Shown here in pieces: positions 25,685 through 48,382 of a stretch of DNA of 64,000 nt. Position 1 is the first letter of the stretch; each line of letters starts with the position of its first letter. The translations under genes and the position numbers were made by a program. The notes under the pieces are model-generated. The model had not been told where the DNA came from. It did no database searches and saw only the letters and a program-made list of their open reading frames with translations. The DNA lies in the IMG/VR virus record IMGVR_UViG_2974597119_000001, positions 1 to 64,000 of that record, one strand, 5' to 3'. The stretch is from a virus. Its lineage: Duplodnaviria > Caudoviricetes.

Positions 25685-25914
25685 GGCCCCGGCGTTACCG
25701 CCGGGGCCCCGTTGTCTTTCCAACCGTCCGCGACACCTTTCGCAACGCCAGCACCCCTATGCACCGGTCTCGCTGCTACTCGGACAGGCACGCCGCAAGG
25801 AGAACGGCGCCCCGCGCAGCCGGGGTTTTTCTCTACAATCCACGCCCGGCTGGGACTGTCCGGCCTATCCTCTCATGAGGCCCCGCCGGCTGGGGGATCA
25901 GCTATCGCAAACAT
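25685..25914 (-). ncRNA. Candidate structured ncRNA (~230 nt) with its own late-type promoter at 25920-25935
   Basis: No credible ORF (13 codons only); nested helices 25781-87/25856-62, 25817-24/25845-52, 25791-95/25805-09; strong 3' hairpin 25685-25708. Confidence 0.5.
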
Positions 25915-37431: not shown

Positions 37432-39176
37432 GGCTCGATGCGGAAAACCGGCAGGCCGAACGCTTTCTGCAGCTCCTCGCCGCCGGCGGCGCCATCGTCC
37501 TGGCCGTCATCGTCGGCCGGCGGCTTGCCGAAGTTGGCGCCGGTGTCGTTCTCGCCACCCGGGCTCCCGAAATCCTCGCCGTCGTCGTCGTCATCGTCGC
37601 CGGGCGCGCCGGGCTGGCCCTGCCCCGGCTGGCCGAAATCCTGCTCCTGCGCCTGGTTCTCGGCCTGCCACACGCCGATCAGCGACGGGTTGATGGGCGC
37701 GGTGCCGATCTTCCCGCCCACGGGATCGAGGCCGTCGATGGCGCGCATCTCGTCCCAGGTCATCGCCAGCTTCTGGCGCTCGAACGCGCGCTGCTCGTCC
37801 TCCTCGTCCAGGCCGGTCCAGCGGAACACGTACTTGTCGGAGAACTCGGCGACGATGAAGTCTGAGAACAGGTTCTCGAAATAGGACAGCAGCGGACGCA
37901 GGCCCTTGTCCTTTGAATTCGCCAGCTTCTCCTCGGTGTCGTCGCCCGACAGGCTCGACGTGCCGGCTGTGAAGGACTCGAAATTGATCTCGTCCGGGGC
38001 GATGCCGTAGATCGCGCAGATGATGCTCGTGAGGAACGTCATCCACTTGGCGAACATGATCTCGTTCACCTCGACGCCGAAGTTCTCGAACGAGGCTTTC
38101 GATTCCTGGTCCTTGGAGATCATGACCGGCAGGGTCCAGGCATTGTTGATGCCCTTGACCATCGCGTTCCAGTAGCGCCGGAACGCCGCCAGATCCTTGT
38201 CGTCGTAGTTCCCCGTGAGGTGCAGCAGGCCCTTCGGGATCTGGTTCGAGTCGAAAAACTTGGTGTTGTAGGTGAAGGCGTTCAGGAACCCGGTGACCGT
38301 GCGCACCAGCAATTCCGTCTCGGCGAAGCCGTAGCCACCTACCGTGACATCGGTGCGCGGATTGCGCGGCACGTAGATCAGGTCGTCGTAGGTGTAGACG
38401 GAGCGGATGTTCCCCTCGACGACCTGGAGCGAGAAAATCTCGTCATCGCCGCGATAGCCATCCTCGGAACACAGGCGGATCGTGCCGCCGTCGACCGCGT
38501 ACAGCCCGTCCAGGCCCAGGGTCTTGTCGCGCTTCCATTCGGTTTCGATGGGCGCCGAATCCATCGTCAGGCTGTCGCGCACCAGCTTCGCCATGAAGCC
38601 TGAGAAGTTGTCGCGCTTGAGCCGCATGCGCTGGCGAGGCTTGGCCTCCCAGCCGCAGTTGAGGAAGAAATCCTGCAGCAGGAGGATGGACTGATTTTCC
38701 TCCTCGCCCGCCTTCGCCTTGTCATCCTTGAGCGCGATGCGGAAGCCCGGGCCCTTGCCGGCGCCCTGGACGCGGCAGAAGCGGTCGATCTGGCGCAGGC
38801 GCGTGAAAATCACCGCGCTCAGGATCGGCGTCTGGTCGACCATCGCGCGCATGTTCTGGAAGCTGAACGCGGTCGGCCGCTCGTACCAGTCGCCGACCAG
38901 GGCGAACTGCCGGTCATCCAGCCAGACCGACTGCATGCCCGGCTCCTTCTCACGCACGGCGCGGCTGGGGAACGGGATGATGTTCGGCTTGGCGAGCGCC
39001 TTCGCGAATTCCTGCTGCTCGTACTGATCGCGCATGAACTCGACCATCGGCAGCATGCGCTCGACGTTGACCGACGCCGGGTCGAGCGCCGCCTTTTGGA
39101 GCTCGGTTTGCGCATCGCGCCGCTCGTCGGCGGGCGCAGCGTCGTTGTAGGCGATTTTTGCGGCAGTGTCGGTCAT
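37428..39176 (-). CDS. Portal protein
   Basis: 582 aa; YAVDGGTIR, FFDSNQIPKGLL, CAIYGIAPDEI, SKDKGLRPLL and DEMRAIDGLDP motifs. Confidence 0.9.
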   Translation of the reverse strand: MTDTAAKIAYNDAAPADERRDAQTELQKAALDPASVNVERMLPMVEFMRDQYEQQEFAKALAKPNIIPFPSRAVREKEPGMQSVWLDDRQFALVGDWYERPTAFSFQNMRAMVDQTPILSAVIFTRLRQIDRFCRVQGAGKGPGFRIALKDDKAKAGEEENQSILLLQDFFLNCGWEAKPRQRMRLKRDNFSGFMAKLVRDSLTMDSAPIETEWKRDKTLGLDGLYAVDGGTIRLCSEDGYRGDDEIFSLQVVEGNIRSVYTYDDLIYVPRNPRTDVTVGGYGFAETELLVRTVTGFLNAFTYNTKFFDSNQIPKGLLHLTGNYDDKDLAAFRRYWNAMVKGINNAWTLPVMISKDQESKASFENFGVEVNEIMFAKWMTFLTSIICAIYGIAPDEINFESFTAGTSSLSGDDTEEKLANSKDKGLRPLLSYFENLFSDFIVAEFSDKYVFRWTGLDEEDEQRAFERQKLAMTWDEMRAIDGLDPVGGKIGTAPINPSLIGVWQAENQAQEQDFGQPGQGQPGAPGDDDDDDGEDFGSPGGENDTGANFGKPPADDDGQDDGAAGGEELQKAFGLPVFRIEP

Positions 39177-40999: not shown

Positions 41000-42193
41000 G
41001 TGAACCATGTCATCCACGAAGAAGGATCTCGCCCCGTAAAAATCTGGACCGATGAGGTCGAGGACAGCGCGCTCACCCAGCTCAAGAATCTGGCGCGCCT
41101 GCCGTTCATCCACGGCAACGGCGTCGCGGCCATGCCCGACGTTCACGCTGGCATCGGCGCCACGGTCGGCAGCGTCATCGCGACGGACAAAGCGATCATC
41201 CCGGCCGCCGTCGGCGTCGACATCGGTTGCGGCATGAACGCCGTGCGCCTGTCGCTCAAAGCGTCCGACCTGCCGGAAAGCCTGACCGCCATTCGCCACC
41301 AGATCGAGCGCGACGTGCCGCTGGGCGCCGGCGGCGCACACAAGCCCGACCGTATGCCGACCATGCCCGAGCATCTGTGGAACGGCCTGGGCCTGCTGAC
41401 CGCGAAGCACGAGGCCCTGGAAAAGAACAGCGCCGGCCGCCAGCTCGGCACGCTCGGCTCCGGCAATCACTTCATCGAGCTCTGCCTGGACGAGAACCAG
41501 GACGTGTGGATCATGCTGCACTCCGGCTCGCGCGGCATCGGCAACCTGATCGGCCGCTACTTCATCGAGAAGGCCAAGCGCCGGATGGAGCAGTATTTCA
41601 TCAGCCTGCCCGACGGCGATCTCGCCTACCTGCCCGAGGACACCGACGACTTCAACGATTACGTCGAGGCGGTGAACTGGGCCCAGGACTACGCGCTCGA
41701 GAACCGGCGCGTCATGATGGAGGCCGTCATCGCCGCGCTGCGCCGGCATGTGTCGTCGCACCTTTTCGACTTCACGATCACCCAGGAAGCGATCAACTGC
41801 CACCACAACTACGTCGAGAAGGAGAACCATTTCGGCCGGAACCTGTGGGTCACGCGCAAGGGCGCCATCCGCGCGCGCGCCGGAGACTTGGGCATCATTC
41901 CTGGCTCGATGGGCCAGCGCAGCTACATCGTGCGCGGCAAGGGCAATGTCGAATCCTACTGCTCATGCTCGCACGGTGCCGGCCGGAAGATGAGCCGCGC
42001 CGCCGCGCGCCGGATGTTCACGGTCGACGACCTGAAAGCACAGACCGCCGGCGTCGAGTGCCGCAAGGACGACGCCGTGCTGGACGAGATCCCGGCCAGC
42101 TACAAGGACATCGACGCCGTGATGGAAAACCAGCGCGATCTCGTCGAGGTCGTGCATGTCCTGAAACAAGTTCTGTGCGTCAAGGGCGCGTAA
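41000..42193 (+). CDS. rtcB: RtcB RNA 2',3'-cyclic phosphate ligase
   Basis: MPDVHAG, VGVDIGCG, GNHFIE, HSGSRG, HHNY, RKGA, PGSMG and SHGAGR motifs. Confidence 0.95.
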   Translation: MNHVIHEEGSRPVKIWTDEVEDSALTQLKNLARLPFIHGNGVAAMPDVHAGIGATVGSVIATDKAIIPAAVGVDIGCGMNAVRLSLKASDLPESLTAIRHQIERDVPLGAGGAHKPDRMPTMPEHLWNGLGLLTAKHEALEKNSAGRQLGTLGSGNHFIELCLDENQDVWIMLHSGSRGIGNLIGRYFIEKAKRRMEQYFISLPDGDLAYLPEDTDDFNDYVEAVNWAQDYALENRRVMMEAVIAALRRHVSSHLFDFTITQEAINCHHNYVEKENHFGRNLWVTRKGAIRARAGDLGIIPGSMGQRSYIVRGKGNVESYCSCSHGAGRKMSRAAARRMFTVDDLKAQTAGVECRKDDAVLDEIPASYKDIDAVMENQRDLVEVVHVLKQVLCVKGA

Positions 42194-42655: not shown

Positions 42656-42892
42656 ATGGGCACCTGGGTCGGGATCCGCTGCGAGAAGCTGGGCCCGGGC
42701 TGCTTGTCGGCCGAGAACATTGGCCCGTCCGGCATGTTCGCCGACGGCTCCTACAACGTGGCCGCCGGCGTCCGGAAACTCTACGCCGACGCACATAAGC
42801 AGGGATGGCGCCGCGAGAGCGAAGTGCCGAGCGCCGGGCCGCGCGGCGGCTGGCTGTGCCCTGTGTGTTTGAAGAACAAGGAACAATCGTGA
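42656..42892 (+). CDS. Small Zn-finger-like protein
   Basis: IRCE..GC and WLCPVC. Confidence 0.55.
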   Translation: MGTWVGIRCEKLGPGCLSAENIGPSGMFADGSYNVAAGVRKLYADAHKQGWRRESEVPSAGPRGGWLCPVCLKNKEQS

Positions 42893-44367
42893 ATGACAAG
42901 AATTCTCAATTCGTGCTGTCGGATGACGAAATCGAACGGATTGGCACGCACCACGATGTGCAAGGGCCGCACTCCTTCGCCCGCGCCATCGAATCCGCCC
43001 TGCTGTCCAAGCTGCGCGCCCCTGTAGCCGATGAGCGGTGCAAGCGGTGCGGCGGCCCCGGCTGGTACACCAGCCACACCACCGGATACCCGGAGTCGAT
43101 TCCGTGCAGCGCCTGCAACCCTCAAGGCGTTTCGGCGGAGCGGCTGGAAAAGGACCCATTCTTGGCTGCGCAGCTTTGGCGCAAACCTGTGGACTTCGCG
43201 GACGCCTACGAGGGCGCCCGGGAGGATCTGGCCATCTGGAAACGGCGCGCCCTGGAAGCCGAGCGCGACTTACGCGCAGAGCGGGAAACGTCGTCGCACC
43301 TGGTTGCCGAGTTGAATGCCGAGAACGGCCCGATGCGCATGGGCGGCCCTGCCGCCCTGGCAAGCGCCCCTGTAGCCGATGAGCGGGCGGCGCTGCAAAG
43401 GATCGTGGAGACCGCAGAAGACGGTGCAAACTCCGGCGACCGTCACGCCCGCTGCGTTGAAATAGCGCGTGCCACTCTGGCAAGTGCCCCTGTAGCCGGG
43501 GAGGCGCAGCCGGCCGCCTACCTGACGCTGGACGAGGAAGGTTCGCCCAGTATGCTGTTCTTCGATGTGGTCGAGGCGCGCACCTATTGCGAACTCGGGG
43601 ACGAGCCGGAGCCGCTGTTTCGTCGCTCGGCTCTCGTAGCGGGTGATGCCAATCCCCAGGCCCCTGCGGGATGGCGTTGGACGCTGCACCCGGCAGGGCT
43701 GCATCCTGATGTGTACGCGGCAGCCGCGGCCCGGGACAGCGTCGAGGACGTGCGCAATGCGGCGCTGGAGGAAGCGGCGGGACACATCGAAAGCAAGAAG
43801 CCCGTCGGGACAATCGCCCTAGTCGTTCAGGCGTTCGCCGACGAAGTGCGCACCCTCAAGTACACCCCCGCGCCCACGGCGGCAGAGGGCAGCCAGGCCA
43901 GCGAGGCGGTGCGCGATGCTATCGAGACGTGCGCCAAGATTTGCGACGGCCGCAGTGCAAGCCTGATGCAGTCGCAGATGCTGACGGCCAGCAACGAAGC
44001 GCACAAGTGCGGTATGGCAATTCGATCTCGTGCCAAGGAATTGCTTTCGCTGTCCCTGTCCGCGCAACCGGGAGCTATTCGAAATCCTCTAATAGCTGAA
44101 CCATCCGGAGAGTTGGGGCGCGCCGCCACTGAGGATGTGGTGCTGCCGCCGGTTCCGAGCGCTTACAACGACACCGGCAGCTATATCGGGTACGCCAAGT
44201 CCGACCTGCAGGCTTACGCCCGCGCCGCCGTCCTGGCCGACCGCCAGCGGCGCTCCGGGGACGCCCCGCGCGAAGACGACATGCTGACCATCGCTTACCT
44301 CGCGGGAGCGCAAGCGGAGAAAGAACGCGCCGCCCTGGCCGCGCGAAAGGAGGGGGACGATGCGTAA
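42889..44367 (+). CDS. Mosaic hypothetical protein with repeated APVA(D/G)E linkers
   Basis: GTG 42889; CxxC pair; NAALEEAA motif; internal DNA repeats. Confidence 0.65.
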   Translation: MNDKNSQFVLSDDEIERIGTHHDVQGPHSFARAIESALLSKLRAPVADERCKRCGGPGWYTSHTTGYPESIPCSACNPQGVSAERLEKDPFLAAQLWRKPVDFADAYEGAREDLAIWKRRALEAERDLRAERETSSHLVAELNAENGPMRMGGPAALASAPVADERAALQRIVETAEDGANSGDRHARCVEIARATLASAPVAGEAQPAAYLTLDEEGSPSMLFFDVVEARTYCELGDEPEPLFRRSALVAGDANPQAPAGWRWTLHPAGLHPDVYAAAAARDSVEDVRNAALEEAAGHIESKKPVGTIALVVQAFADEVRTLKYTPAPTAAEGSQASEAVRDAIETCAKICDGRSASLMQSQMLTASNEAHKCGMAIRSRAKELLSLSLSAQPGAIRNPLIAEPSGELGRAATEDVVLPPVPSAYNDTGSYIGYAKSDLQAYARAAVLADRQRRSGDAPREDDMLTIAYLAGAQAEKERAALAARKEGDDA

Positions 44368-44710
44368 AGCATTCCTCTACATCGCCACGACCGCGCTGTT
44401 CGTGGTGTGGGAAGCCTGCAAGCGCGTGCACGGCTGGTGGCGTCGGCGGGGATGATCATGATCGCCTACCTGCTCGACAACCCGCCGCTGGTCATCGCCA
44501 TCGTCACGGGCCTGATCCTGGCCGTGGTGTGCGCCGTTGCAAACTGGCCTCGACGGAAACAGATCAGAAATCAGTTGTCCGCGCGCAACAGAGCCAGCAA
44601 TGACGCGGGTTCCGAGCGGTATACTGAAATCGTAGGGCGCTCATAGGGCGCAACAACGTGGATTCACATTCGTCGGCAGAGACTGTACTGTCGGCGCCGA
44701 GGGGAAAATC

Positions 44711-45076
44711 ATGAAGCGCATTCTCGTATCCATCCTGGCCGCCGCCATAATGGCGCCCGTCGCCGCGCACGCTGGCGACTTCATCGCCAAGCGGCTGCAG
44801 GACGACGGCTCGATCATCGGCCTGACATCGGTGCCGTGCGACGGCGAGCCCGGCCACAAGGCGCTGATCGCCAAGGGCAACTGGATGGGCGCCGGCTGCT
44901 ACCTCGTGATGCCCGACGGCTCCGTCAACGTGCGCTGGATCTGGAAGAAGGATCCGCTCGACGCGTACCAGCGCATCGAGCCCGCGCAGCTCCAGCCGGT
45001 CGGCGATTTCAAGGGCTGGCCCGCCGTCGACTGGTCCAAGCAAGCGCCGTTGTCGCCAAAAGGCAACAGAGGCTGA
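44711..45076 (+). CDS. Secreted hypothetical protein
   Basis: Signal peptide MKRILVSILAAAIMAPVAAHA; TATACT -10 at 44620-44625. Confidence 0.65.
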   Translation: MKRILVSILAAAIMAPVAAHAGDFIAKRLQDDGSIIGLTSVPCDGEPGHKALIAKGNWMGAGCYLVMPDGSVNVRWIWKKDPLDAYQRIEPAQLQPVGDFKGWPAVDWSKQAPLSPKGNRG

Positions 45077-45117
45077 TGCGCGCGACGCGCGAATCGAAAT
45101 TGATGTAGAATTCGTTC

Positions 45118-45193
45118 CGTGGTGTAGCGCAGTTGGGAGCGCGCCGGGCTCATAACCCGGAGGTCGCAGGTTCGAGTCCTGTCACCGCAACCA
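45118..45193 (+). tRNA. tRNA-fMet (CAT), initiator type
   Basis: C1:A72 mismatch, CCGGG-CTCATAA-CCCGG anticodon arm with 3 GC pairs, TTCGAGT T-loop, encoded CCA; TAGAAT -10 at 45106-45111. Confidence 0.92.
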
Positions 45194-45268
45194 GATTCAT
45201 CGCTCTTTCAAAACTTGTCGCGAGCACGTCGACGCCATCGAAGATGGCCGAGGCGGAAGCTCATGAAT

Positions 45269-45344
45269 TGCCAAGTATCTCAGTTGGTAGAGAGGCGCAC
45301 TGTTAATGCGCATGTCGCTGGTTCGATCCCAGCCTTGGCAGCCA
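45269..45344 (+). tRNA. tRNA-Asn (GTT)
   Basis: TGCCAAG/CTTGGCA acceptor stem, GCGCA-CTGTTAA-TGCGC arm, G73, CCA. Confidence 0.93.
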
Positions 45345-45500
45345 GAATGTCTACCACCGACGCTCAGCTTGCTGAGCAGCTAGATGCCAGCCTAGGGTGG
45401 GAATGGCTGGACCCAAACCGGACGGGTATTGCGGGCGTGTGGTAACGCTCAAGAGACGGGGACTACGCCCGACTGGCCGCCGTAAGCGGCCATCGATTTC

Positions 45501-45578
45501 CGGTCCCTAGCTCAGTCCGATTAGAGCGTTCGCTTTGGGAGCGAAGGGTCGCAGGTTTGAATCCTGCGGGACCGACCA
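45501..45578 (+). tRNA. tRNA-Pro (TGG), atypical D and T loops
   Basis: CGGTCCC/GGGACCG acceptor stem, TTCGC-TTTGGGA-GCGAA arm, CCA; T-loop TTTGAAT and D-loop lacks GG. Confidence 0.85.
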
Positions 45579-45579
45579 G

Positions 45580-46000
45580 AATTGCAGCAGTGCCGAGCCC
45601 GCTCGATGACGACTGAGTGCCCAACTGGCGGGAAACAAGTTCGTCCGATTGGCCCCCGTTAACAGGCCCGTGAGCTCCCTGGCAACAGGGACCACACGTA
45701 AGCAGGTTGGTCGGATAGCGGCGCAAGCCGTGATGCTTCCGAGGTGATGACCAGCCAGCCTGCTACCGTGTGGTGCTCAGCCCCAGTTGAACCTCTGAAA
45801 CATGAGACCGGCCCCGGAAGGTGTAGCTTCGGCACGACCGCCCAAGGACTGGCAGATAGCAGACACTGAGCACCGCTCGCATACACCTGTGAGAGAAGTC
45901 CCCGCCGACGCCAGAAGCTGGCCGAGGGGCAGGCGCAGATCGGAGTCGTAAGCCGCCAAATCGAGTAGCACGTAACCTGGGCCGCGTAAGTGCCCAGGAT
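45580..46000 (+). ncRNA. Candidate large structured ncRNA block A
   Basis: No credible ORF; long-range helices 45691-45710/45755-45774 and 45772-45780/45866-45874; several tetraloop hairpins. Confidence 0.5.
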
Positions 46001-46074
46001 CCTCAAGACGTGGTGCTGAACATCCTTGGTCGGGTTTCCGGGGTGGTTCCCGGACAGCACCACGCCTTGAGGAT

Positions 46075-46383
46075 GGTAGTGTGCGGGCCTCGGCCCGCGA
46101 GACGTGAAGTGAATGGCGTTCGGACGCGGGTTCAATTCCCGCCGGCTCCACCACTGGCAGCATTGGCGTCGAGCTCAGCATCCCCGGGGTCCGGATCACG
46201 GGTGAGTTCCAGTGCTGCCAGTCATGGGGCCGACCGGTTTCGACGGGCGCGCTGCAGCGGATCGGACTACTCGGCAAGCGGAGCCGTAAACCAAGCAAAA
46301 TCGTAGACGCCAACGACGACTACATCCGCGCCGCTGCTTAAGCGGTGACGGCCTCCCCCGGCAGGTGGCAACAGAAGCCGGGG
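46075..46383 (+). ncRNA. ssrA: Circularly permuted (two-piece) tmRNA; tag (A)ANDDYIRAAA
   Basis: Acceptor piece with T-arm GCGGG-TTCAATT-CCCGC and CGGCTCCACCA ends at 46153; coding piece starts GGGGCCGACCGGTTTCGAC at 46226; G3:U70 pair; tag ORF 46309-46341. Confidence 0.9.
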
Positions 46384-47300
46384 ACCATCATCGAAGCGGC
46401 ATTCGAGCCGGGGATAAGCCCGGCCCGCTTCGATGATGGTGTCCCGCAAGGGATGGGATTGACCCACACGCAAACGTCCTTCGAGGCGGTACCCGCTGGC
46501 GACGGTTAAAGCAGCCAGCTCATCACGTCCGCCCTGGCGACGAAAAGGCCAGGACCATTGGTCCGGGGTCGCCCCCCAGCATGCCGGCGGGTCGCCGAGG
46601 AAGAACGACCGTCGATCCGGAAAACGAGGCACGGGTTCTCGGATGGCTCGCCGGCATGTGGACCGCCATGATGATGGCGCTCCTGGCGCAGTAGTGCGGA
46701 GGGACTTGTCTATCCCCGAGCCGCGTCAGGGCGCCGCCATGATGGCGAATGCCCTGACTGACGGGCACGTCCTAAGTGGCGTGGGGATAGGCATCCACGC
46801 TGCCGGTTAGATTCCGGCCGCCGTCAACGAGGAAAGCCCCGGTACGCAAGCCGGCAAGCGGAGGCAGAGCCCGCTCCGCCTCAAGCGCAGGGTCAGCGCG
46901 CCGCGCGGCTGGAAGGCCGCAAGAGTCTTCCGGACCGATCCGTCGGTCTCGGCCGCAGGCCCGGGACCCCGGGAACGAAAGCGGATGCTGAGATACCGCC
47001 CGCAAGGCGGATCATTTCAGTGCAGCGAGTAGGAGGTCGGGAGAACCGTTCCGGCGGCAGTCATGCGCGCAGGAGCAAACGTCAGACCCAGCCAATCCAT
47101 ACGGTCGGTGGAAGTCCGAGCCGGAGACGTAACCGGCACCCTGACGCGCAGCAGGCAGGCTGCGCGGTCCTATCCCAAGGATCACCGGTAGGAAGGAAAC
47201 GCCGGGCCGATGAGGGTCGCGAGCCTGAGCACAGGGGCCGACTGACGATAAATTGGGAAGCCATCGCGAGAGTGCGAGGCCCGCTTGCCGGGCCGCCTAT
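46384..47300 (+). ncRNA. Candidate giant ornate ncRNA block B (~900 nt)
   Basis: No credible ORF on either strand; dense hairpins, several with GCAA/GAGA-type loops; long-range helix ~46580-46600/46638-46660. Confidence 0.55.
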
Positions 47301-47485
47301 CGATCCAAGTTGACGGTTTCGTTACTTGACTCTCACTTCAAAAAATCGAGTCCGATCAACGGGTTAAGTCCCTGTTTGAAACCTACTTGCGCGCTTCTGG
47401 CGCACATAATCCACATGCCCATTTGCTAAATCGTGCGCGGCCACAGATTGGTCACAGAGCAACAAACCAACAGTCCACACCCATC

Positions 47486-48382
47486 ATGCGCGCACATGGC
47501 AACAATCGGATTACTGAACCTATCGTGAAGTATCGCCCAGGCACCGTGCACACAGAGCACAACGTGCACGGGCTGAGCATTCACCACGTCTCGGACGTGA
47601 CTGGGGTCGAAAACATCCTCGTCCCCGAGCACTCGATATTCCTGGTCAACACACCCGTGATCTCACTGGATACGTGGCAAGGGGAGCGCCTGCCCCCGCG
47701 CCACTGGGCTACCGGCGACGTAGCGTTTCTACCGGCCGGATCAGAAATCACATCCACCCCGGATAGACCCTACGGCAGTGCCATGATCCGCGTGAACGAC
47801 GAGGCGTTCAAAAGGGCCACGAGCTGCGACCTGCAGTACGACAGCGCCGAGCTTCGGTATGTCGGAATGTCGAACCCCATCGTCTCCCGCATCGCGACCA
47901 CAGTGGCAATTTCTCTCGTGCAGCATCCGCCATGCGCCTTGCTTGTCGATAGCCTCGCGACGACCCTGAGCATCGCAGTGCTCAACGAGATCACCGGCAG
48001 GCCCAGGAAGGAGATGAGCGGAGCCCTCTGCCCCAAGAGGAAGCAGCGCGTGATCGAGTACATCGAGGCGAATATTGGGGATCCAATCACCCTGTCCGAA
48101 CTCGCGAGCGTGGCGGCGCTCAGCCCTCACCATTTCAGCCGGTCGTTCCGTCGGACGTTCGGTGTTTCGCCAGTGCGATACGTCTGGACGCGGCGCATCG
48201 ACATGGCAAAGCGGTTGATGCGCTACTCGGCGCTGCCGCTCGCGGCGGTCGCCTTGACGTGTGGCTTCTCCAGCCAAAGCCACTTCTCGACGGCGTTCCG
48301 GGTGGCGACCGGAGTGACGCCGGCCGCCTACATGCGCACGATCACCGATATCGCGCGACCGAGGGATTCTCGAGCGACCTGA
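47486..48382 (+). CDS. AraC-family transcriptional regulator
   Basis: VIEYIEANI...LSPHHFSRSF...CGFSSQSHFSTAFR...GVTPAAY. Confidence 0.9.
   Translation: MRAHGNNRITEPIVKYRPGTVHTEHNVHGLSIHHVSDVTGVENILVPEHSIFLVNTPVISLDTWQGERLPPRHWATGDVAFLPAGSEITSTPDRPYGSAMIRVNDEAFKRATSCDLQYDSAELRYVGMSNPIVSRIATTVAISLVQHPPCALLVDSLATTLSIAVLNEITGRPRKEMSGALCPKRKQRVIEYIEANIGDPITLSELASVAALSPHHFSRSFRRTFGVSPVRYVWTRRIDMAKRLMRYSALPLAAVALTCGFSSQSHFSTAFRVATGVTPAAYMRTITDIARPRDSRAT

Follow-up and report, generated by a model that had tools for sequence, protein, structure and literature searches.

Candidate small structured RNA modules downstream of the tRNA and tmRNA genes of a complete phage genome

The stable-RNA island and its surroundings

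The window analysed here comprises bases 1-64000 (64,000 nt) of a 94,005-bp virus record that is rated complete, and carries on its + strand an island of stable RNA genes approximately 3 kb downstream of an rtcB gene (41000-42193, +; phrog_1075, E 2e-154). Genes for tRNA-Met, tRNA-Asn and tRNA-Pro (45118-45578, +) are followed, after ~480 nt without assignment, by a permuted two-piece tmRNA (46061-46432 according to ARAGORN, +; Rfam RF04321, 104.5 bits). A perfect hairpin of 15-16 bp, H, evident from the sequence (46385..46439, +), marks the boundary with the tmRNA and precedes the stretch of principal interest, 46441-47300, whose nearest tRNA gene is situated ~900 nt upstream. The next gene after the island encodes an AraC-family regulator (47387-48382, +; HTH_18, E 3e-22) and is separated from it by an AT-richer region that may carry a promoter of its own. 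A preliminary description of this DNA had singled out 46441-47300 as nearly 0.9 kb without a plausible ORF, and this is borne out by the absence of third-position GC periodicity throughout 45080-47360, as against a spread of 0.3-0.5 in the flanking genes. The gene-free island therefore extends well beyond 46441-47300 to 2.3 kb, inclusive of the three tRNAs and the permuted tmRNA. The 3' limit of the tmRNA was placed at 46341 by the permuted tmRNA model, at 46390 by the beta_tmRNA model and at 46432 by ARAGORN, and a reading of 46441-47300 as a 3' extension of the tmRNA was rejected since all tmRNA models stop by 46432. No sigma-70-like promoter or intrinsic-terminator-like site was found in 44500-48000, which fits read-through from the tRNA and tmRNA genes.

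The interval between tRNA-Pro and the tmRNA (45579-46060) is a second gene-free stretch, pieces of which recur in other phages (L020, L082) and in a soil contig. Two oligo-dT RNA-seq runs from one study contained exact contigs for 45514-45763 and 45796-45980, at a depth of 3-4, and none covering 46433-47300; contigs of such depth bear in neither direction on transcription of the latter. Further upstream, 2.5 kb of odd composition lie between rtcB and a small ORF (+ strand). Neither Pfam nor PHROG matched the ORF at 42805-44367 (520 aa), in which GC is lowest at the third codon position. Short segments of its DNA are shared at 90-100% identity with several phages in differing orders, and this DNA also contains internal repeats at 43002-43035, 43350-43383 and 43470-43503; relatives found via this ORF had the ORF in common and lacked the RNA stretch. 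The presence of RtcB suggested a bacterial Y RNA (YrlA)/Ro60 system, an idea that was discarded as the ORFs of 42.1-44.7 kb contain no TROVE or other Pfam domain and no Rfam Y-RNA match was obtained. Elsewhere in the window, a Proteo-phage-1 RNA (RF03044) was identified at 25815-25895 (-; 60.6 bits).

Known RNA families and predicted folding

GOLLD and ROOL are described as gene-free, hairpin-rich, phage-borne and tRNA-adjacent RNAs of unknown function (PMC5737381; bioRxiv 10.1101/2024.12.08.627333). The stretch 46441-47300 is likewise gene-free, hairpin-rich, phage-borne and located beside tRNA genes, in a virus record with tRNA-Met, tRNA-Asn, tRNA-Pro and the tmRNA directly upstream, and the preliminary description had suggested a GOLLD-like RNA or a new large RNA class. 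Rfam 15 was searched with cmscan at the gathering score and, for 45000-47600, with permissive filters at E<=10. No covariance-model match was obtained to GOLLD (RF01998) at either setting or to ROOL (RF03087) at E<=10, so that neither identity could be upheld. Group I and II introns, RNase P RNA, HEARO, OLE, raiA and other large Rfam RNAs gave no match in 46433-47300 at E<=10, the sole match in that interval being a sub-threshold one to tRNA-Sec (46741-46825; 21.7 bits, E 0.39). Rfam scans of 23 homologous loci gave no name to any module described below, and motif strings of the modules met only chance primer matches in the literature searched.

All hairpins listed in the preliminary description were located in the sequence of the + strand: GTCCC-GCAA-GGGAT at 46441-46454, GGAAGGC-CGCAAGA-GTCTTCC at 46913-46933, GACCGA-TCCG-TCGGTC at 46934-46949, CCGCC-CGCAA-GGCGG at 46997-47011, the two CGCCAT...ATGGCG stems at 46665-46680 and 46735-46747, and the helix of CATGCCGGCG (46581-46590) with CGCCGGCATG (46650-46659). 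The minimum free energy (MFE) fold of 46433-47300 on the + strand has -427.6 kcal/mol (z -4.47; none of 20 shuffles as good) and pairs the two ends of the stretch with each other, whereas the - strand scores z -1.62. Folded piece by piece, the strength of this signal resides in 46663-46747 (z -4.4), 46741-46826 (z -2.9) and 46561-46662 (z -2.8), and other pieces are near chance.

Homologues and covariation of the individual modules

Homologues were sought by blastn against 50,697 phage records, by pattern scans of IMG/VR, of a collection with one genome per species and of a metagenome collection, and by BLAST of 401 genomes from the family sample centred on Bordetella trematum. Exact loop patterns were used to assemble the homologue sets, so that loop invariance is partly built in; left free in the patterns were hairpin 2 of the C core, the outer stems of LH and the stems of D3'. 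A first C-core pattern was too strict and returned no matches. The blastn search gave only two matches inside the stretch, both to unannotated intergenic gaps in early operons: 46969-47136 with Bordetella phage IFTN6 (75% identity; 170 nt) and 46814-46874 with Burkholderia phage CSP3 (85% identity). Homologues occur in Burkholderiales-type phages and prophages. Across IMG/VR and the collections of phages, genomes and metagenomes, no sequence was collinear with the full 860 nt. Pattern and covariance-model scans of the window yielded no extra module copies, and the 94-kb genome contains no second copy.

The larger blastn match corresponds to an element of roughly 180 nt that we term the S-D RNA (46960-47138, +). 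Its S domain (46960..47032, +) is predicted to fold as a P1 hairpin, the block GAAAGCRGAUGC, a variable P2 and the block GYAGYGAGUAG, the P2 apex in the window being the CCGCC-CGCAA-GGCGG hairpin. Sixteen distinct examples share the two blocks and the predicted architecture with several unrelated P2 sequences, and the facing GAA and AGUA strands may form a loop-E-like motif. D-mid (47033-47104, +) comes in two types among the homologues, and because the S-D alignment mixes them, RNAalifold recovered only the hairpins of D3' from it. D3' (47105-47138, +) consists of twin hairpins with the fixed loops UGGAAGU and AGACGUAA, and was found in 22 IMG/VR contigs and five genomes, its carriers including Achromobacter, Bordetella, an uncultured Alcaligenaceae bacterium, Geminicoccus and Pseudomonas paralcaligenes. 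Its stems, of which that of hairpin 2 was free in the pattern, exchange C-G for U-A ten times, G-C for C-G once and C-G for A-U once; 98.4% of cells pair, three pairs have double changes, and a U-G and a G-U pair arise on the + strand, the U-G kind on that strand only. Among 151 genomes from the Bordetella trematum family sample, a D3' covariance model reached >=50 bits in four; the S-D element is rare and probably prophage-borne. An 8-bp hairpin, CGCGCAGC / GCUGCGCG, is predicted to fold just after D3' (47145..47166, +), and in five loci (L023, L025, L086, L088, L092) a similar hairpin was recognised by eye after D3' or B.

A contig of Geminicoccus flavidas (L036) has a full S-D copy and, in tandem, a divergent second D3' copy that overlaps the start of a tRNA-Met (ARAGORN coordinates) and has a compensatory change in hairpin 1. 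The Burkholderiales-2 RNA (RF02917) was detected at two unrelated loci (L002:1684-1757 and L053:979-1052, both -), on the opposite strand and ~0.5-1.3 kb upstream of S-D/D3', which may represent a recurrent neighbourhood.

Two hairpins of a second kind, B, lie close to H. B1 (46495..46519, +) has the stem GCUGGC/GCCAGC and a GACG...UAAAG-type loop, and was recognised by pattern match (a single match in the window, against 0.03 expected by chance), by its predicted hairpin and by alignment with B and D3' hairpins; B2 (46532..46555, +) is a homologous motif with the stem CCUGGC/GCCAGG and the loop GACGAAAAG. The B motif is present in 20 IMG/VR contigs and, at 90-95% identity, in intergenic DNA of five genomes of the Bordetella trematum family sample. 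The H stem also recurs, in six loci (L069, L078, L084, L012, L091, L095), and in L078 and L084 it stands upstream of the B hairpin, as in the window. In five other loci (L081, L083, L086, L088, L092) B directly follows the S domain, and L025, with S and D, is 94-98% identical to L086, with S and B, on either side of the exchange. This exchange, together with the base-for-base alignment of the B hairpin with hairpin 2 of D3', shows B to be a shorter allelic form of the 3' end of D. In total, 46441-47300 contains three hairpins with the GACG...UAA-type loop of the B/D3' hairpin 2 kind.

LH is a long hairpin of 85 nt with a conserved apex (46663..46747, +; z -4.4), which was retrieved with a 30-nt exact pattern as search key in four further loci (L069, L097, L098, L099). 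Forty-four columns are invariant in the alignment of five sequences, while five pairs of the outer stems have compensatory changes; 95.5% of cells pair and none of 500 shuffles equalled this. Its loop begins CUUG, which we take to be of the YUNR type, as in antisense RNA loops, and treat as a lead only. One of the four, the distant relative L099 (9500-11700), has in common with the window the gene at 38001-38951 (74% identity), and there LH sits with a tRNA-Met and a tRNA-Cys-like gene in a gene-free island of >2 kb that likewise lacks third-position GC periodicity.

The sequence overlapping the 3' end of LH has a cloverleaf as its MFE fold (46741..46826, +; z -2.9), with the T loop UUAGAUU, an 8-bp stem and 8-nt loop at the anticodon position, and no CCA. 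It scores 21.7 bits with the Rfam tRNA-Sec model against a threshold of 47, is not called by ARAGORN and has a non-canonical T loop; it is probably a degenerate tRNA, tRNA-like in shape only. In L069, L097 and L098 the acceptor strands differ in sequence and still pair, as judged by reading the sequences rather than by a tool count. The 5' acceptor strand of the cloverleaf is also the 3' strand of LH, and the two folds are therefore mutually exclusive. The tRNA-like piece was also considered as an attP site, an idea that was dropped as the adjoining C core covaries across unrelated phages.

The C core (46829..46874, +) consists of GAGGAAAG, hairpin 1 (CCGG, loop UACGCAAK, CCGG) and hairpin 2 (5 bp, loop UGCRRAG), and is known from ~18 distinct examples. 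Hairpin 1 is invariant. Hairpin 2 lay outside the search pattern, and each of its five pairs covaries (pairing in 96.5% of cells, equalled by 0 of 500 shuffles). The module begins 0 nt past a tRNA CCA in L068 (by ARAGORN) and in L070/L072, L073 and L075 (by sequence reading), and in L070/L072 it alone makes up the entire spacer between two tRNAs. The other copies, that of the window included, follow a T-arm-like hairpin ending ...UCAAC. A CRISPR spacer in a genome from the Bordetella trematum family sample (L057:1502-1534; genome G296, contig C20) is the reverse complement of the C core, GAGGAAGG...CCGGTACGCAAGCCGG..., within an array of ~49 repeats with a 61-nt period. Host immunity has thus drawn a spacer from a conserved, non-coding module of the phages. 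L057 was the only CRISPR array among the genome and metagenome loci examined, which comprise those with the other short chromosomal matches.

No convincing homologues were obtained for 46441-46494, 46556-46661, 46875-46957 and 47167-47300, ~40% of the stretch, which could be spacer or lineage-specific parts of a larger fold. Among these pieces only the long irregular hairpin with the CATGCCGGCG/CGCCGGCATG helix (46576..46661, +) folds clearly above chance (z -2.8), and since no homologue of it exists in any collection searched, its proposal derives from folding energy only. A predicted Y-shaped element that comprises the GGAAGGC...GTCTTCC and GACCGA-TCCG-TCGGTC hairpins (46905..46956, +; z -0.55) gave weak chromosomal DNA matches and no convincing homologue, and the tail before the AT-richer region (47167..47300, +) has fold z-scores of -1.2 and +0.5.

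Each named module has a homologue set of its own, and their order differs among phages. S-D and a tRNA fill a 384-nt gap in Bordetella phage IFTN6; in L078, L084 and L012 the order is D, H, B, tRNA-Arg; LH is present without the C core in L098 and L099; and L097 and CSP3 contain common pieces in differing orders. The locus L069 is collinear with 46396-46873 only, and in a soil-metagenome contig 45767-45873 is linked to 46666-46874 across 367 intervening letters of other sequence. Three distinct loci have D3' ending 10-11 nt ahead of a tRNA-Arg(UCU), and inspection by eye shows a shared downstream context after the C core in L106 and after D3' in L021/L022. Such comparisons show B, D3' and the C core substituting for each other at one site in related phages. 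Among temperate relatives, the modules occupy early operons, upstream of genes for recombination or SSB, and in L007 and L010 a start codon follows them after ~35-45 nt; PHROG annotation beside the element in L007 revealed nothing useful.

Judged from the alignments, the stems of the C core, D3' and LH covary while their loops are fixed, and the G-U and U-G pairs in covarying stems, together with the strand-asymmetric fold z-scores, indicate that the modules act as RNAs of the + strand. We conclude that S-D, LH, the C core and B/D3' are apparently new RNA motif families. Covariation was obtained per module (C core, D3', LH) and not for the whole stretch, and GOLLD, ROOL and intron models all failed to match. 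The proposal of a GOLLD-like or new large RNA class consequently survives only in part: the sequence is non-coding, structured as judged by covariation, located beside tRNA and tmRNA genes and outside any described family, but it is neither GOLLD nor ROOL, nor one large conserved RNA.

Proposed interpretation as a set of small RNAs

The reading that we favour, with moderate confidence, is that 46441-47300 forms the tail of a stable-RNA operon and holds a chain of autonomous small structured RNAs rather than one molecule. The + strand island would run from the three tRNAs and the two-piece tmRNA to B, LH, the cloverleaf, the C core and S-D, arranged head-to-tail, and these would share a single precursor transcript. 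TRNA-processing enzymes could then cut this precursor, RNase P at the 5' ends of tRNAs and tRNA-like elements, and RNase E with exonucleases at 3' trailers, to leave several stable small RNAs. The fixed loops, including the three of the GACG...UAA type, may serve as docking sites for a protein or RNA partner, and the small RNAs might act as decoys, sponges or guides during infection. Separate processing is suggested because the modules adjoin tRNAs in other phages, and release by tRNA-type processing is probable on this sequence-based argument; against it, the stretch itself appears to contain only a degenerate cloverleaf, and the nearest tRNA lies ~900 nt upstream.

The same observations bear on the alternatives. 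A single giant ornate RNA of ~860 nt, as the preliminary description had envisaged, would have the modules as its domains and the unconserved parts as a variable periphery, and it draws on the fold of the stretch as a whole (z -4.47), in which a closing helix is predicted to join the ends, on the location in a phage tRNA cluster and on the lack of internal promoter-like or terminator-like sites. We nonetheless consider it quite unlikely because the modules stand alone elsewhere, in short gaps and in other orders; only pieces of ~25-210 nt have homologues, none in the collections searched being collinear with all 860 nt, no Rfam model matches, and the closing helix lacks comparative support. 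A cis-acting role, as antitermination hairpins of the nut/boxB or put kind or as leader or trailer signals for tRNA maturation, with the cassettes as phage-specific recognition sites, would suit the early-operon position in temperate relatives, where the modules come after the repressor/cro region and upstream of recombination or SSB genes, as well as their occurrence ~35-45 nt before the start codon in L007 and L010. The boxB sites of lambdoid nut are phage-specific, which the cassette exchange recalls, hairpin types differing among related phages for the modules here too. The put RNA of HK022 is ~70 nt long with two stem-loops downstream of early promoters and acts without protein, with a triplex in stem I (PMC9378689), and D3', with two adjacent stem-loops and invariant loops, resembles it and boxB as short hairpins of early phage operons, in shape and position only. 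The put RNA also contacts the beta' zinc-binding domain of RNA polymerase and suppresses terminators in cis. In the window, however, the modules are found at the end of the + strand unit, where the sole downstream gene is the AraC-family gene behind a possible promoter of its own, no terminator-like sites are nearby, and a C core directly between tRNAs better fits a processed spacer RNA; for this locus a cis-acting role therefore seems improbable to us.

The stretch might also be non-functional debris composed of decayed tRNA and tmRNA pieces, recombination scars and hairpins arising from GC-rich palindromes, and the degenerate cloverleaf (46741-46826), the ~40% without relatives, the several pieces that fold no better than shuffles and the sharp mosaic junctions are all in keeping with this. 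We find it very doubtful because covariation goes together with invariant loops: compensatory changes keep stems across distant phages, and the LH apex is conserved in five phages with differing flanks, which would be unexpected for scars. Hidden small protein genes are the least credible, and indeed highly improbable; + strand ORFs do exist at 46643-46810 (55 aa) and 47020-47313 (97 aa), but the region lacks third-position GC periodicity, homologue alignments carry 1- and 2-nt indels, which are not multiples of three, and conservation tracks stems and loops, not codons.

A chain of small RNAs would place the stretch among the products of phage tRNA clusters. The tRNA gene cluster of phage T4 includes the stable RNAs 'species 1 and 2' (bands C and D), which are co-transcribed with the tRNAs and freed by tRNA-processing enzymes. 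By description, the modules resemble these as small RNAs of a phage tRNA cluster with a presumed processing of the same type, but T4 has two fixed genes as opposed to the interchangeable cassette set seen here. In E. coli, the regulatory RNA 3'ETS-leuZ derives by cleavage from the trailer or spacer region in a tRNA operon. The C core is comparable in that it starts at the first base past the tRNA CCA and can be the entire spacer to the next tRNA, yet it is a conserved, covarying two-hairpin structure whereas 3'ETS-leuZ is a linear sponge sequence. Descriptions of GOLLD distinguish a conserved from a variable half of one large conserved unit of about 800 nt; the homologues found here are autonomous, shuffled modules of only ~25-210 nt in other orders, and their hosts appear to be Burkholderiales-type as opposed to Firmicutes, Actinobacteria and Fusobacteria. 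In contrast to put and boxB, the elements in the window sit at the end of the operon.

Enigmatic RNAs, GOLLD, ROOL and the T4 stable RNAs among them, are already known from phage tRNA clusters, and this stretch adds several undescribed motif families with comparative support: S-D (~180 nt), LH, the C core and B/D3'. These behave as mobile, interchangeable cassettes, at least one of which is targeted by host CRISPR immunity, and covariance models and coordinates are now defined for module RNAs that phages may ship alongside tRNA, tmRNA and RtcB genes. A long, gene-free and hairpin-rich stretch need not, on this evidence, equal one giant RNA. More tentatively, and as a possibility to which we give limited weight, Burkholderiales-type phages may carry 'RNA islands' whose modules (S-D, B, C core, LH) are exchanged like protein-coding morons, with B, D3' and the C core as alleles that determine specificity towards an RNA-binding factor of phage or host. 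If true, phage-host or phage-phage interaction would possess a new layer based on RNA, linked to the translation-repair kit of tRNA, tmRNA and RtcB.
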